Of a stretch of DNA of 64,000 nt, positions 3,192-62,714 are shown in pieces. Each line of letters opens with the position of its first letter. Within the stretch, counting starts at the first letter, position 1. This DNA comes from a virus, in IMG/VR virus record IMGVR_UViG_3300027896_000034, positions 3,256 through 67,255 of that record; one strand, written 5' to 3'. A program made the position numbers and the translations under genes. Below the pieces are notes generated by a model, which saw nothing but the letters and a program-made list of their open reading frames with translations, was not told the DNA's origin and did not search any database.

Positions 3192-4715
3192 TTATTTCCT
3201 ATTTTTCATCTTTGCAAGTATTTTATCTTTAGCAACTCTAGCTTGTTCCTTGTATTTTTTCATACATTCACTTTTTTCTTTAGAATGTAAACCAGCACAA
3301 ACTCTAGCTGCTTTTGTCATATAATTTCTATAAACTTCTGTTCCTACAATAGTAGCTAAAGCACCAACTCCAATAGCTGTACCTACTTTTACTTTTGTTG
3401 GAGCAGCAGCATTTATTTTTTTTGCACCAGATACAATTTTTTCAGTTCTATCAATTATTTTTTCTGCTATTTTATCAGCTTTATTTAATGTCCATTCCTG
3501 AGCTTTTTTTCTATTAAAAATTTTCCTTCCTGCTTCATCAGCAGTTTCTTTAGCTTTATTTCCAAGATCTTCCTTAAAATCTTCATTTAAATAATCTAAG
3601 TAAGTTGATATTTTTGCTTCAATAACTGATTCTTTAAATAAATTTCTTGGACTAATTTTATGTTTAAAAAATGGACTTGTTACTTTTTGTATATCTTCAA
3701 TTTTTTCATATACTTTATAATTTTCTTTACCAAAACTAGAAAATAAAAGACCATGTGGAACAGAAGAGCACATACCACCAAATTCTTTCATACAAAAATT
3801 TGTTCTTTTATTTACATCATCATTAATTATTATTGATCCCCAACCTAATCCAAATAATTTAGATACAGAACCTGCTTTTCTAAAATGTTTATCATCTTCT
3901 AAATCTTGTTGACTAAGCAAGCAGAAAATTTTTTCTTTATATTTAGTAGATGCAAATAAAATATCTTTTTCTATATTTCCACTTATATCTCTAGATTTCA
4001 TAAAAGGTATTTTATCTGATAAAAAATCATAAACTTGATACCAATATTTAAATAATTCTCTAGTTTTACTATACATAAATTTATCTACTATATTAAATGA
4101 TAAATCAGTACTAATCATTTTTTCAAGTTCTTCACTATTTTTTATAGGATAAGGTATAACTTTTATTCCTAATAGTTTTGTTCCATTAGCTGTATCAACT
4201 GTACAAAAAGTTGGTTCTACATGCATACCCTCAACTCTTGGAAAATCTATATGCATCGTTTTTTTAGACATAGCAGTTTCTATTTTACCTGTTTCTATAT
4301 CTCTTAGTTCTCTTTCTTTAGATATACCTTGTTCAGTTTCCCTTTTCTCCCTTTCAGCTTTAAACATTCTTTCTCTTTCTTGTTCAGATCTTTCAGTTGC
4401 TTCTGCTGCATCTGCTGCTTTTTTATATGCTCTTGTTCTTTCGTATTGTTCTGGACCTCCTTGATCACCTTTAACTTCTAACATAAAATTTTCATGTGCT
4501 CTATGTTTTAACATAAATTTTGAAGCTTGGCTTGCTAATCCTTCTACACCACCAATAGTTATTTTTCCCTTTAATCTAAAACTTTGAGCAACATCTTCTA
4601 ACTCATAAATCATAACAAATCTTTCTAATACTTTACATATACCTGGTAATACATTAGGGTTTATATTAGGAGAAACTAACATAGGGTAAACTGCGATCAT
4701 TTTAAAATCCTCCAA
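3192..4715 (-). CDS. hypothetical protein, possibly virion-associated
   Basis: 507 aa ORF with charged coiled-coil segments and a C-terminal Cys pair. Confidence 0.6.
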   Translation of the reverse strand: MEDFKMIAVYPMLVSPNINPNVLPGICKVLERFVMIYELEDVAQSFRLKGKITIGGVEGLASQASKFMLKHRAHENFMLEVKGDQGGPEQYERTRAYKKAADAAEATERSEQERERMFKAEREKRETEQGISKERELRDIETGKIETAMSKKTMHIDFPRVEGMHVEPTFCTVDTANGTKLLGIKVIPYPIKNSEELEKMISTDLSFNIVDKFMYSKTRELFKYWYQVYDFLSDKIPFMKSRDISGNIEKDILFASTKYKEKIFCLLSQQDLEDDKHFRKAGSVSKLFGLGWGSIIINDDVNKRTNFCMKEFGGMCSSVPHGLLFSSFGKENYKVYEKIEDIQKVTSPFFKHKISPRNLFKESVIEAKISTYLDYLNEDFKEDLGNKAKETADEAGRKIFNRKKAQEWTLNKADKIAEKIIDRTEKIVSGAKKINAAAPTKVKVGTAIGVGALATIVGTEVYRNYMTKAARVCAGLHSKEKSECMKKYKEQARVAKDKILAKMKNRK

Positions 4716-52299: not shown

Positions 52300-52382
52300 C
52301 GGAGTCGATAGGACTCGAACCTACAATGGTGTTACCCACGCATGTTTAGCAAACATGTTTCTTACCATTAGAATACGCCTCC
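52300..52382 (-). tRNA. tRNA-Ser(GCU), CCA not encoded
   Basis: CATGT-TTGCTAA-ACATG; long variable arm; overlaps the end of the endonuclease ORF. Confidence 0.8.
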
Positions 52383-53050
52383 GGACTAAATACTCTTCCT
52401 CTTTTCCACCCTTGTAATTCCCAATTTTGAAACTCCTCTTTTTTAATAGTTTTACAGATATTATCCTTATAAATCCAACAATTTCCAAATTGAGAATTAT
52501 TGACGCCAAAATGGTTAAGTTTGTTAGATTTTCTTATTTTATTTTTTGAATCTTCTGAATGGTTTTTACCTAAAAATCCCATAACAGGACTTTTTCTTTT
52601 TAATAATATTCCGTCTTTTATTCTGTCACTGTGCTTCTTTTTAAACTCTTCATTATTTTTCATTAAATATTTAAATTGTATCACAGCTCTCTTAAGTTTT
52701 TTAATTGCTTCTTCGTTTTTATTATCGTGATTTATATTTTCTAAATGATTTTTATTTATATATGAAAATCCACCTTTTCCGCCAGTTAATAAATTATATG
52801 TTTTCCCGGTATTTTTTAAAAGAAATTGGTCTGTTAATATCTCTTTTTCTTTATTTTTCATATCTTCTTCATCTTTACAAATGAAAAGAACTTCTTTATT
52901 AAATTTTTCTTTTCCATATTTTTTTATAGCTGCTTGAAGATATTTACCAGAACCAAGATAATCATCATTTAAATTTTTGGTTTTGTGAAAACCTATATAA
53001 AACTTCCCAGTTTCTATATTTGTGGTTTTATATATAATAAAATAATACAT
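52346..53050 (-). CDS. Seg-like GIY-YIG homing endonuclease
   Basis: IIYKTTN..GKFYIG.H, YLGSG, YNL..GG.GG, NUMOD3-like GKNHSEDSK. Confidence 0.85.
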   Translation of the reverse strand: MYYFIIYKTTNIETGKFYIGFHKTKNLNDDYLGSGKYLQAAIKKYGKEKFNKEVLFICKDEEDMKNKEKEILTDQFLLKNTGKTYNLLTGGKGGFSYINKNHLENINHDNKNEEAIKKLKRAVIQFKYLMKNNEEFKKKHSDRIKDGILLKRKSPVMGFLGKNHSEDSKNKIRKSNKLNHFGVNNSQFGNCWIYKDNICKTIKKEEFQNWELQGWKRGRVFSPEAYSNGKKHVC

Positions 53051-57228: not shown

Positions 57229-57651
57229 TCATAATAATTTTAAATCTCCAGTTATTCCATCAATTTTATCTTCATAATCTGGTCCGATTGCGCAACAAGT
57301 TTTAGTTGGAACTCCATTAAACTCTGTTAAACCAGCGTCTTCAATTAAAGAACAAAGAATATTTTTTTCAAGAGCGTCTCCATAAACTCTCATTAGTTCA
57401 TCTTCGCTATTTACATAAACTACAACTTTTGTAAATAATCCACTCAACCATAAATCTAATGGAGATCCTTTTTCTGTATACAATTCTTTTGAAATATCAT
57501 CTTCACCATTCCATATATCTACCATCTGGTCTAAAATAACTTTCATACTTGCGTGAGATCCTTGAGCAATCATTTTCCCTTTTCGCATATTTAGATCTTT
57601 TCTTATTACGATAACTTGTTTAATTTTTTTATCCATCCCATTCCCACTCAA
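57229..57651 (-). CDS. pth2: peptidyl-tRNA hydrolase type 2
   Basis: KQVIVIRKDLNMRKGKMIAQGSHAS, KVVV, DAGLTEF, TCCAIGP, TGDLKLL. Confidence 0.92.
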   Translation of the reverse strand: MSGNGMDKKIKQVIVIRKDLNMRKGKMIAQGSHASMKVILDQMVDIWNGEDDISKELYTEKGSPLDLWLSGLFTKVVVYVNSEDELMRVYGDALEKNILCSLIEDAGLTEFNGVPTKTCCAIGPDYEDKIDGITGDLKLL

Positions 57652-59478: not shown

Positions 59479-59778
59479 TTATTTCATGCTATCTAGAAGA
59501 GCATCCTTTTCTGCTTGAAGAGCAGCTCTTCTTTCTTCACGACCCATTGTAGCTCTCAGCATCGAGTCTATTTTTTTCAGTTTCGCCAATTTTTCAGCTT
59601 TTGATAAAGACTTAATTTCAGCTTCTACTTCATTTAATTTTTCATCAACCCAGTCAGGAATATCCAACTGAAGTTCTGCGTAGTTGGTTGCAACTAATTT
59701 GATCTCTGCCCTTACACCAACCATCGTTTCAATATCATTGTTTTTAACTTTAAAATTTTTTAATCCTTCGATATTCAT
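59479..59778 (-). CDS. helical hypothetical protein downstream of the Ro60-like gene
   Basis: 99 aa; AAGGAG RBS. Confidence 0.65.
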   Translation of the reverse strand: MNIEGLKNFKVKNNDIETMVGVRAEIKLVATNYAELQLDIPDWVDEKLNEVEAEIKSLSKAEKLAKLKKIDSMLRATMGREERRAALQAEKDALLDSMK

Positions 59779-59895: not shown

Positions 59896-61443
59896 TTATT
59901 TTCTTTTTTCAAATATTTTGTCAAATGTTAACAATGGAAAGTTCATGATTTCGTCCATTAAACTATAGCGACTAGTTTTCATAGTTGCAACTAAATTAGG
60001 TAAAGCATAGTAATCTGTTTTCTCCATATTAAAAAATTCTACTGGAATATTTGCTTTTTTACAATACTGAGATAAATAATCACTATCTCCATGTACATGA
60101 TATAAATAAACAGTAGGTTCAATATCTAATTTTTTACAATAATTTTTATATGCATCATGAAAAAGAGGAGATGTATTATCTCCACCATCAGAAACTAAAG
60201 CAATACCATTTATAATTATATTTTTATCTTGTAAATATTTTAATCCACATCCACAAGATGTTCCTCCCCAAGCTTGAATGTGTTTTGCTTCTTTTTCTAT
60301 TTCTTCAAGTTTCTTCCCAGTTACATCAAATACTCTTGGTTCAGTATTAAAGAAAATTAAATAAACTTTTCCTGCTACTGATTTAGTAATATATGATGCA
60401 ATTTCTTTAGCAAGTTTAACAGCTGACTGCATAGACCCAGAACAATCACCAAGGATCAACCAGTCACCTTCTATGGTCTTTTGAGAAATTTTAGCTTCTT
60501 GAAGTTTTGAAAGTTTTTCAATTATATCCTTATTAATATCTGGATCATTTTCTTCTAAAGATTTCATAGCTTTACTTGCTTTTAAAGTCGAAACTTTTTT
60601 ATCTTTTGTTGCTCTAGTGAGAGCTTTATCATATTCACTTTTTAACATTTTGGATCTAAATACACCAATAGATTCCAAAAATTTTGTACTATTTATAAGT
60701 TGTTGCCCTGACATTCCATTTATAAGTGCAAGAATAAATTCTGGATTTTTTTCAAAATCTTCTTTTTTTACTCCAAGAGATCCAAGAGCTATCTGAAAAG
60801 GAATATTACGATTTAAGATTGTTCCAGCCGCTTCAGATGGTTGCATATTTTTAAGATTTGCTATTGCATAGAATATTGAGTTTACTGGAAAATTTTTTTC
60901 AAATAAAATTTCTTGAACAGTTATATCCGGATCTTCTTTCTTTAGAGATGGATATATTATAGTAGATGGATTATAATGAGATACTGTATATAATTCTTTT
61001 AAAGAAGATCTATGCTGAACTGCAGTTCTAATCCACCAACCAATTTTTTCTTCCCGAATTTCTAAATATTTTTTCATTGCTTCTTCTAATAATCTTCTGT
61101 GTCCACCAGTTATATGTAAACCTTCTTCTGAAAGTTCTTTATTAAATTTATAAGCTTTAACCAAATTTCTTGGATCTAAAGTCATTAAAGAAGCTACTGC
61201 ATTTTCTGCAAATTCAGAATCTCCTTTTTTTAAGGACCTCAAATTTATGATCGGTAAAGCAATTTTTGAATCTCTGATTTCTCCTTTAATTAAGTTCCAA
61301 GAAATTAAGTGAGCAAGAAATTCTGGATCTTCTTTTGCAACTTTTAAAGTTATTGAGACATAATCTTTTAAGTCTCCGTGCTTACTTTTTATTAACTCAC
61401 TTATCATTGATTGTTTGGTAGACGCAACATTCTCACTTTTCAT
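59896..61443 (-). CDS. Ro60/TROVE-like protein (helical N-terminal region plus C-terminal vWA MIDAS domain)
   Basis: 515 aa; DPEFLAHL..W....EIRD near the N-terminus; DCSGSM, GGTS, VSDGGDN. The vWA call is firm; TROVE is inferred from architecture. Confidence 0.7.
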   Translation of the reverse strand: MKSENVASTKQSMISELIKSKHGDLKDYVSITLKVAKEDPEFLAHLISWNLIKGEIRDSKIALPIINLRSLKKGDSEFAENAVASLMTLDPRNLVKAYKFNKELSEEGLHITGGHRRLLEEAMKKYLEIREEKIGWWIRTAVQHRSSLKELYTVSHYNPSTIIYPSLKKEDPDITVQEILFEKNFPVNSIFYAIANLKNMQPSEAAGTILNRNIPFQIALGSLGVKKEDFEKNPEFILALINGMSGQQLINSTKFLESIGVFRSKMLKSEYDKALTRATKDKKVSTLKASKAMKSLEENDPDINKDIIEKLSKLQEAKISQKTIEGDWLILGDCSGSMQSAVKLAKEIASYITKSVAGKVYLIFFNTEPRVFDVTGKKLEEIEKEAKHIQAWGGTSCGCGLKYLQDKNIIINGIALVSDGGDNTSPLFHDAYKNYCKKLDIEPTVYLYHVHGDSDYLSQYCKKANIPVEFFNMEKTDYYALPNLVATMKTSRYSLMDEIMNFPLLTFDKIFEKRK

Positions 61444-61472
61444 CTTTTCTTATTCCTTTCTTTTTAAATAGG

Positions 61473-62147
61473 TTAGGCTAGTTAAGTCAATTTTTTTAGC
61501 ATTAGAATTGCATGTATATTGACTAAGTGCCTAATTTTATATAGGCAACAGAACCGACGTAAAAAAATACGGGTTCCTGGTTTAGAGGGAACAAAAACCT
61601 CATACCTAAAACATTCACCCGTAGTAGTTTTTAAAATAGGCATAGTTAGACCAACGTTTAACCCATAACTAACCCCCATGATCTGTTTTGGTGGGGGTCT
61701 ATGGAGCGTTTTATGCATGATATAATTTGCTTGTAGGTTGCTCAGGTGCCTATTATTTAAAGGGCTAGTTTAATCGACGTTTTTACTTTTTTGGTGGAGG
61801 TTTGAGATTAGTAATCTCATACCCCCGAAGTAGCTTTTTTCATCTTCATTGAAATGCTTGTATGTCGATCATGTGCCCTATTCTTAAAACATGGCGAAGT
61901 TAAAGAAGTTTTAATCTATCTTTCGATAGTGTGTAGGATTTGAACCTACTAACATTTGCTTAAGAGGCAAATTGACAAACCAATTGTCAAACATGTAAAC
62001 TTCTTAGATGCCATGTATATTTATTTTAGTGGCATAGTTAAGTGACCTTTAGGGTTGCATAGATGGGATTGAACCATCTACAGTTAGTTTTCAAAGACTA
62101 ATGCTCTACCAAATGAGCTATATGCATGTATGATCACTATGTGCCAC
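61473..62147 (-). ncRNA. tandem array of five Y-RNA-like units
   Basis: units 62029-62147, 61889-62016, 61761-61879, 61635-61754 and 61473-61534 share GGCA-NNT-stem-TACAWG ... stem'-WAACTW-GCC with covarying stems. Confidence 0.7.
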
Positions 62148-62714
62148 ATATAAAAGTATTTGTTCTGAAAAAAATTAAGATCAGAACTTAGTTTGTTTCT
62201 TTAAGGAACCGCGGATTATTACATAATAAAATCTTGGTTATCTGAAATAATCCACGATTAATTTCTATAGTTTTACAGCAAGGATCCGGTTTCCTGTACT
62301 GGAAGGTTACTCATCCGGGTGCTAGCGTCCGGAAGTTATTATTACTAATAACCTTTTTAATGAACCTACAAGTTCTCGATGAATGTATATATCGACTATA
62401 GTTGCTCCAACATGTTGGAAACTACAGGATATATGTGGGAGTACCACTAAACACTCACAACGGATAATAAAACACCCAAGAATATCTTACTTCATGAATT
62501 AATATATATACTTAATTTTTTTATATATGATTATTTTATTTATAACTGGTCTTATGTAGAAAAGAACTAAAGTAAAAACTATTCTTTTTAATAGATACAA
62601 GTTATTACCAAGTTTCTAATCTACATAAGACCTTTGCAAAAATGGAGGTGCCTATTGTTTATTAATATATATACAAGAACAAAATATAAATGGTTTTAGA
62701 AAGGAAATATTTAT

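Follow-up and report, generated by a model that had tools for sequence, protein, structure and literature searches.

In bacteria and phages, Y RNA genes adjoin Ro60 genes and carry tRNA-like modules, and particles composed of Ro60, a Y RNA and PNPase are known (PMC4201824; PMC12135203). Here we analyse an array of five stem-closed units (units A to E) that immediately precedes the co-oriented open reading frame (ORF) 61443-59896 in a 64,000-nucleotide (nt) stretch of the virus record IMGVR_UViG_3300027896_000034 (positions 3,256 to 67,255; hereafter the window, meaning the whole stretch that was analysed). The window is A+T-rich and belongs to a 67-kb IMG/VR record with an estimated completeness of 22; the only sequencing run listed as containing it, probably the source DNA sample, is a freshwater metagenome, and no RNA run is listed. 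Two of the units, A and B, enclose tRNA-like bodies, and our results suggest that they are probably Y-like RNAs of a divergent phage Ro60 particle with a non-permuted tRNA mimic. Units A to E and the gene are encoded on the minus strand, and all their sequences are quoted as read on that strand.

Four described systems are most comparable to this locus. The YrlA RNAs of bacteria and phages are encoded beside a Ro60 gene, have paired ends interrupted by an internal loop and carry apically a module that closely mimics tRNA, its D and T arms being nearly invariant, and most members are without a free CCA end; their mimic is circularly permuted, so that the Ro60 stem takes the anticodon position, the acceptor is closed by a loop and an anticodon loop is lacking (PMC4201824; 10.1101/312249). 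In the Deinococcus radiodurans Yrn1 model of Chen et al. 2014 (PMC4201824), the T/D elements follow tRNA order from the 5' end and a 5-bp stem-loop stands in the anticodon-arm position (an 'anticodon arm' with a 6-nt loop), while a full D arm and a variable region are lacking and the Ro60-binding helix resembles the metazoan one; these authors conclude that YrlA and Yrn1 arose independently from tRNAs. Thermus phage phiLo encodes a Ro60 with Yrl1 and Yrl2 upstream in a stem-bulge-stem layout (PMC12135203); these RNAs were picked by a CGAA motif, and tRNA likeness does not appear in the parts of that description considered here. Finally, gp130 of phage Bas63 has a Ro60-like structure, is encoded beside a phage tRNA array and is reported to counter the ppl defence system, and the authors of the PhageMaP preprint speculate that some annotated Bas63 tRNA genes are Y RNAs (PMC11482910).

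The 515-residue product of the ORF adjoining the array (59896-61443) is predicted to combine a helical ring with a vWA domain that carries the MIDAS motif (metal-ion-dependent adhesion site). Its AlphaFold (AF2) model, based on an alignment of 38 homologs, has a predicted local distance difference test score of 86.6, and the Foldseek matches ranked 1-13 are all Ro60/TROVE structures, i.e. human, Xenopus, Deinococcus and Thermus phage phiLo (expectation values (E) 1.3e-9 to 3.4e-7). VIA-align comparison with Ro60 structures gives Z scores of 16.2-19.4 over 420-449 aligned residues that cover both the helical ring and the vWA domain, compared with Z of at most 14.7 over ∼160 residues for vWA-only chains. 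The MIDAS residues (DxSxS, T, D; here D333, S335, S337, T395 and D419) are invariant in the 38 homologs. Pfam yields only a sub-threshold vWA match for the ORF, and PF25045 (Ro60 vWA domain) weakly matches one of the 38 family members. On the predicted structure, the product is a divergent Ro60-like protein, with orthology assigned by fold only: the phiLo Ro60 is among its best structural matches with insignificant sequence similarity, and Bas63 gp130 has no sequence match to the family of the window. This family comprises 393 clusters at 50% identity (E ≤ 1e-30), and LR756511.1, an uncultured phage of 595 kb, is the sole carrier of a homolog in a tblastn search of 50,697 deposited phage genomes.

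Unit A (62029-62147) encloses a full tRNA-like cloverleaf, and every motif quoted in the original prediction is found at its given coordinates when read on the minus strand. Its closing stem 1 (5' strand GTGGCAC, 62141-62147) pairs with ATGCCAC (62029-62035), and stem 2 (5' strand AGTGAT, 62133-62138) pairs with GTCACT (62041-62046); the two stems are separated by an internal loop with AT on the 5' strand and TAACT (62036-62040) on the 3' strand. In the minimum-free-energy fold these outer stems appear as GTGGCA/TGCCAC and GTGATC/GGTCAC. Stem 2 is followed by the linker C-A-UACAUG (UACAUG at 62125-62130), the UG of which supplies the first two bases of the acceptor TGCATA (62121-62126, paired with TATGCA at 62056-62061). 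After TA come, in natural tRNA order, the D arm GCTC/ATTTGGTA/GAGC (62103-62118), the anticodon arm TTAGT/CTTTGAAA/ACTAA (62084-62101, 8-nt loop at 62089-62096), CTGTA, and the T arm GATGG/TTCAATC/CCATC (62062-62078); the acceptor's 3' strand is joined to stem 2 by ACCCTAAAG. The acceptor has 6 bp, to which cmscan adds A.A as a seventh pair, and continues into ACCC instead of CCA; both ends of the body are embedded in the stems. Rfam matches the tRNA model with 50.1 bits (model positions 1-71; 62054-62127), and ARAGORN calls the body (62052-62127) as 'tRNA-???' with the four-base anticodon ttga. The loop sequence CUUUGAAA resembles the common CUUGAAA plus one extra U. The fold of unit A has a minimum-free-energy z score of -2.43, and 2 of 200 shuffles fold equally well.

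Unit B (61889-62016) has the same frame (ACATGGC, ATCT, AAGAAG, UU-UACAUG, body, CTTCTT, TAACTTC, GCCATGT) around a body of D, anticodon and T arms (61933-61989; Rfam tRNA 34.4 bits, model positions 10-63 only). Its anticodon arm TTTGC-CTCTTAA-GCAAA (61955-61971; canonical 7-nt loop CTCTTAA at 61960-61966, anticodon CUU) and its T arm GTAGG-TTCAAAT-CCTAC are as originally described, as is the D arm. The statement that unit B has no acceptor stem holds for the full stem; a 3-bp remnant TGT/ACA (61930-61932 with 61992-61994) and a 5-bp, GAAA-capped hairpin CTATC-GAAA-GATAG (61916-61929) are nevertheless present. Stacked on the three pairs, this hairpin could substitute for a closed acceptor arm. 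The minimum-free-energy z score is -5.37, and none of 200 shuffles folds as well. ARAGORN makes no call at unit B. The description of the units as non-chargeable holds for unit B, and for unit A it is a property that we infer.

Conservation was assessed in 77 viral loci, i.e. 68 with a near-full-length homolog of the Ro60-like protein (29-49% identity) and nine with a vWA-only match; closer homologs (60-72% identical) exist, and the comparison of units covers the loci of 29-49% identity. In many related loci, ARAGORN reports isolated tRNAs of unusual type immediately upstream of the gene (with Ser-ACT, Ile-AAT, Asn-ATT, Phe-AAA, 'SeC' or two-base anticodons), and when folded with 40-nt flanks these show enclosing stems as in units A and B. 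A MAFFT alignment of 27 units (25 from these loci plus units A and B) was the source of covariance model R1. At a threshold of 60 bits, R1 gives 59 matches, which fall into 55 of the 68 loci (hand count from the table) and on unit A of the window, and it gives no unit in the nine vWA-only loci. All R1 units in the loci are on the strand of the gene, and most lie within 2.5 kb upstream of it. After removal of 12 duplicate loci (L006, L007, L028, L029, L036, L039, L040, L043, L048, L056, L057 and L064), at least one unit of at least 61.6 bits is present in 44 of 56 non-redundant loci, with the window counted additionally, and GenBank record LR756511.1 contains two units upstream of the gene (85.4 and 75.6 bits). 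In the window, unit A scores 92.1 bits (E 1.8e-23; model positions 1-147) and unit B, which is missed under the covariance speed filters, scores 71.6 bits with filters off (E 4.3e-18), compared with 56.5 bits for the best genuine tRNA. Since both units are in the R1 seed, their scores arise partly by construction, and it is the related loci that provide independent evidence. Scanning viral contigs for a 20-nt pattern yielded no contigs beyond those already in the set, and the DNA of 61400-62700 has no similarity match among 50,697 phage records.

The family units share a common anatomy, in which the 5' and 3' ends pair into a stem broken by a conserved internal loop. The closing module runs in the order stem 1, YACU/GACUU internal loop, stem 2, two bases and UACA(U/C)G. 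Across 48 units, stem 1 (7 bp) is 98.5% paired and stem 2 (6 bp) 88.9% paired, with compensatory changes in all seven and all six pairs, respectively. The 5' loop strand YAC-U has A in 42, C in 37 and U in 34 of the 48 units; the 3' strand GACUU has G in 43, A in 44, C in 39, U in 42 and U in 35 (two units have CGAAU), and the units of the window carry a (T)TAACT(A) variant in its place. In UACAUG, the C and A of UACA are invariant (48/48), with T in 47, A in 46 and G in 46, and UACA itself is paired in a few units (e.g. L066, L038 and L052). Within the body, the D stem GCUC/GAGC is present in 44-47 of the 48 units and the T-stem G-G in 47-48, and the 5-bp anticodon stem is 98.3% paired. The acceptor that follows UACA is more variable, with at least five pairs in 22 units and 0-4 pairs in 26, and most units with a short acceptor have a GNRA- or UUCG-capped hairpin like that of unit B. 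A crude scan for the closing frame returned 126 candidates on the strand of the gene, 30 on the opposite strand and 36 in shuffles, and is noisy.

Covariation argues for these helices. In the 48-unit alignment, 96.7% of cells pair (shuffles, 62.8%; slid controls, 33-43%), and compensatory changes are seen in 26 of the 27 pairs, including all five of the anticodon stem. The 27-unit MAFFT alignment, in which UACA is invariant, supports the pairing independently of model fit: its RNAalifold consensus has 27 pairs, 24 of them with compensatory changes. It is extremely improbable that the units are decaying tRNA pseudogenes with flanking complementarity by chance: although the anticodon loop of unit A and the acceptor of unit B are abnormal, this explanation is already contradicted by covariation in every helix and because dozens of distant loci conserve the units. 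Both the closing module and the arms are thus conserved in related phages (44 of 56 loci and LR756511.1), as the original prediction required, and its description of the units as Y-like is borne out by this conserved, covarying combination of closing module and tRNA body next to an ORF with the Ro60 fold.

Compared with YrlA, the phage units are oriented in the opposite way, as had been noticed from the sequence: in them the closing module is attached to the acceptor end and the anticodon arm is retained in full, whereas YrlA has no anticodon loop and its acceptor is loop-closed (PMC4201824; 10.1101/312249). This reversed orientation has a precedent in the Yrn1 model (PMC4201824), from which the phage units differ in being nearly complete cloverleaves, scored as tRNA by Rfam and ARAGORN. 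With ordinary phage tRNA genes they share the D arm, T arm, anticodon stem, U33, A37 and a tRNA-rich location, but their ends are locked in the closing module, triplet and loop length are free, and the acceptor is often a capped hairpin. The phage family is a third version beside YrlA and Yrn1, far more complete than Yrn1, with its own closing-module sequence and with a Ro60-like protein, missed by domain models, as its putative partner. Our literature search found no description of the protein family or of acceptor-tethered tRNA-like Y RNAs; the supplements of Chen et al. 2014, which may bear on how rare the orientation is, lie outside its coverage.

The anticodon arm combines a conserved stem with a free triplet. 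Of the 48 units, 42 have a 7-nt anticodon loop, three a 6-nt loop and one each a loop of 5, 8 (unit A) and 13 nt. Among the 7-nt loops, U33 is present in 37, A37 in 34 and A38 in 38, and positions 34-36 are near random (entropy 1.73-1.99 bits), with 23 triplets in the 42 loops. The commonest triplet is UGA (six units), A34 occurs in 12 loops, and the identical stem TCTGA/TCAGA carries UGU, CUU, UAU and ACG in different units. The units with UCA or UUA are called 'tRNA-SeC' or 'tRNA-Stop' by ARAGORN (L009:6425-6571, L012:867-1011, L018:2359-2505, L025:2656-2803 and L049:1807-1950).

These features bear on whether the units are precursors of working tRNAs, with the closing module as a leader-trailer processing stem and the bodies excised for translation, including as suppressors or, for unit A, as a four-base decoder. 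We regard this as quite unlikely. Unit A is a full cloverleaf, the anticodons UCA (three units) and UUA (two units) would read stop codons, and the YrlA of M. smegmatis is cut by RNase P and receives CCA (PMC4201824). Against this stand the 26 of 48 units, and unit B, that have no usable acceptor; the 11 of 12 A34 anticodons that are not Arg-ACG; loop lengths that range from 5 to 13 nt; and the closing module itself, which is absent from the 20 genuine tRNAs of the window (at most 56.5 bits, compared with at least 61.6 bits for units) and occurs in the same form around units without a tRNA inside. Furthermore, bacterial tRNA-Ser needs a long variable arm, and the six UGA (Ser) anticodons are found on bodies whose variable loops are 5 nt long. 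Given this mismatch, the non-Arg-ACG A34, the odd loop lengths and the missing acceptors, ordinary decoding by the family is unlikely.

PrrC and PARIS AriB target tRNA-Lys(UUU), and the original prediction regarded a decoy role of the displayed anticodon loops as plausible. In such a decoy or sponge, the loops would soak up or mis-direct a tRNA-cleaving host defence, with the Ro60-like protein as carrier; this concerns function and is compatible with a Y-like anatomy, but we consider it unlikely. It would fit the retention of the anticodon stem, U33 and A37/A38 while many members are not chargeable, the position of the locus within a tRNA array together with the peptidyl-tRNA hydrolase PTH2, and the hypervariable triplet on a conserved scaffold, which an arms race could produce; a counter-defence role is also reported for the Ro60-like protein of Bas63 (PMC11482910). 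However, free drift accounts for the variability equally well, and the family has no common target: there are 23 triplets, A34 in 12 of 42 loops, and loops of other than 7 nt in 6 of 48 units, including unit A, which enzymes that read a defined anticodon loop should reject. CUU, moreover, is found besides unit B only in L038 (and its duplicates), and PrrC and AriB act on the UUU isoacceptor rather than CUU. A Lys decoy as the function of the family is therefore not supported, the triplet being its least conserved part and many loops mimicking no host tRNA. The loop of unit B itself is nevertheless identical to that of five of the eight genuine phage tRNA-Lys(CUU) genes compared, so that unit B may be a decoy, and lineage-specific decoys would likewise be expected to combine a scaffold with a free triplet; we keep the decoy as a minority reading. 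The structural side of the original prediction holds, and its functional side is weak. A broader variant, to which we give a low but appreciable probability, is that the family is a conserved, non-chargeable and programmable anticodon display on the phage Ro60-like ring, with a triplet that selection diversifies. The loop presented in each phage lineage would then be the one that is read by a tRNA-targeting defence of its host or by another codon- or anticodon-reading factor, and if this is true, Ro60/Y particles would be a counter-defence device against anticodon nucleases.

Several results weigh against our preferred reading of units A and B as Y-like RNAs of a Ro60 particle. For the protein, Pfam TROVE (PF05731) has no match in the record and matches none of the 38 family members at E ≤ 0.01, and the family profile finds nothing significant among PDB sequences (E 0.91), so that the link to Ro60 is one of fold only. 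For the RNAs, apart from tRNA, Rfam gives no match in the window at E ≤ 10 (two chance-level rows) or, at gathering score, in 16 loci; Rfam 15 is presumed here to contain the Y RNA models that we associate with it. The published Ro60-binding motifs GGUCCGA and GNCGAAN0-1G are absent from the 5' strand, the conserved element being GACUU on the 3' strand. Together with the missing TROVE match and the restriction of Rfam matches to tRNA, this lack of a 5' GNCGAAN0-1G also separates the units from YrlA. The acceptor is open in part of the family: a CCA, usually as NCCAAA, follows it in ∼12 of the 22 units with at least 5 bp (hand reading), which would fit the release of a tRNA-sized RNA by RNase P and 3' trimming and is a point for the precursor explanation. 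The open-acceptor subtype, including unit A, may thus release tRNA-sized RNAs. Twelve of the 56 non-redundant loci have no high-scoring unit (L002, L011, L022, L026, L030, L034, L041, L051, L054, L058, L061 and L063), three of which (L022, L026 and L061) have less than 500 nt of sequence upstream of the gene. Lastly, the 48-unit pair counts come from an alignment fitted to the model, which favours the structure somewhat.

The absence of the known Ro60 motif is also a point for a cassette that serves RNA processing or stability and has no relation to the Ro60-like protein, i.e. a double-strand RNase site or a protective stem by which a polycistronic RNA is divided into stable pieces, with gene linkage explained by a shared operon history. 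Five tandem units with short spacers, and a stem/internal loop/stem layout that resembles phage RNase III sites, point in the same direction. We nonetheless judge this very unlikely, as the sequences YACU, GACUU and UACAUG are conserved across loci of 32-54% G+C, and 44 of 56 loci keep the association with a single gene family, even where inserted homing-endonuclease genes now separate the RNA from the gene. Such HNH endonuclease genes (Pfam HNH, E 1.3e-10) lie between the tRNA-like unit and the gene in 29 loci (e.g. L003:2956-3537).

Units C, D and E of the window have the closing frame and TACA(A/T)G of units A and B with different interiors. Unit C (61761-61879; fold z -6.53) has the closing module and TACAAG around an interior that is not tRNA, and shares the 5' repeat family D1/D2. 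Unit D (61635-61754) is closed by AATAGGCA/TGCCTATT, likewise has an interior that is not tRNA, and is supported by motif matches and a local R1 match at 61625-61765. Unit E (61473-61534; fold z -3.85) is a minimal Y-like unit of 62 nt with a motif match and an R1 score of 13.9 bits (E 0.006). The motif TAACTN(1-2)GCC has five matches in the 64 kb (1.1 expected), and in four cases the match forms the 3' end of a unit (A, B, D or E). The Ro60-like gene follows the units at a distance of 30-700 nt, its ORF starting 30 bases downstream of unit E. Arrays of 2-4 units also occur in other loci (L003, L004, L009, L021, L034, L038, L041, L050, L053, L062 and L066) and include minimal units of 64-75 nt like unit E. 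Because of these arrays with other interiors, what is constant is the closing module with UACAUG, whereas the apical module can be of several kinds, among them the tRNA body. Y RNAs are built on this principle, combining a protein-binding stem with an effector module that varies, and units A and B are fairly probably the two promoter-distal members of a five-unit Y-RNA-like array.

Units C and D have the motif ACC(C/T)CCACCAAAA in common (repeat D17), which in unit C follows a 6-bp stem that encloses a hairpin and resembles an acceptor/T-arm minihelix ending in ACCA. This may represent another, smaller type of tRNA-end mimic. In the interval between units D and E (61560-61625), a long hairpin (TACGGGT...ACCCGTA) is followed by a run of seven T, and a promoter-like site precedes unit E (61563-61534). 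Units A to D, on the one hand, and unit E plus the gene, on the other, may be separate transcripts.

Our reading of units A and B as Y-like RNAs builds on their observed sequence and structure, their conservation and covariation, the gene linkage and the fold of the protein, and it suggests the following mechanism. The units would be expressed and would have the Ro60-like protein as their partner, the ring binding the closing module. The apical part of units A and B is a tRNA body in natural order, with elbow-forming D and T loops and a 5-bp anticodon stem; both ends of this body are tied into the closing module, and in unit B a capped hairpin additionally replaces the acceptor. The ring would thereby display an L-shaped tRNA mimic that is unable to decode (in the case of unit A, that probably does not), and this mimic would recruit or occupy a tRNA-binding factor. 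Candidates are an exoribonuclease (cf. Ro60-Y RNA-PNPase), a tRNA processing or repair enzyme and a tRNA-targeting nuclease. The biological role of the particle would thus be linked to the upkeep or protection of the tRNA pool during infection. Among possible functions, we favour the tethering of a tRNA-binding factor to the ring, because of the analogy with Ro60-Y RNA-PNPase and because of the tRNA array, PTH2 and, in locus L005, an RF-1-domain ORF nearby. This ORF (L005:3613-4005; E 7.9e-14) is directly upstream of the Ro60-like gene.

If correct, this reading extends the Ro60/Y RNA system to many uncultured large phages through a large Ro60-like family that is missed by domain databases and has its own RNA partners. 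It would also give the idea of Bas63 Y RNAs a concrete anatomy, though the proteins show no sequence similarity. The closing module is defined, sequence-conserved and directly testable for protein binding, and the location of the units in tRNA arrays near a PTH2 or RF-1-domain gene offers a concrete system for the role of tRNA-like modules in Y RNAs. There is also an annotation hazard: tRNA finders call the units tRNAs, some as 'SeC', 'Stop' or undetermined, so that tRNA counts and suppressor or recoding inferences in large phages can be inflated.

Directly 3' of the Ro60-like gene, a conserved small ORF of 99 residues (59479-59778, minus strand) has a homologous ORF at the same position in 61 of 69 sources. 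Its product is predicted to be helical; Pfam assigns it to no family, and the ESM Atlas gives no usable feature match and, on structure, nothing but generic helical entries. The protein may belong to the particle as its third component. The window contains 20 standard tRNA genes, all on the minus strand, 19 of them at 51.5-59.3 kb and one at 21.9 kb. The PTH2 gene (57229-57651, minus strand; E 2e-31) lies inside this tRNA array, as does a GIY-YIG-like ORF (52346-53050).

A scan for promoter and terminator consensus sequences gave counts not above those of shuffles. An upstream 'TTGACT...' repeat was considered as a plus-strand promoter and dropped, because three of its four copies do not fit. 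Upstream of unit A, the intergenic region 62200-62640 has no ORF of at least 60 residues and no Rfam match. It has a locally higher G+C content and hairpins, and it contains a terminator-like site on the plus strand (62314-62333) and a 33-nt inverted repeat (62548-62632).

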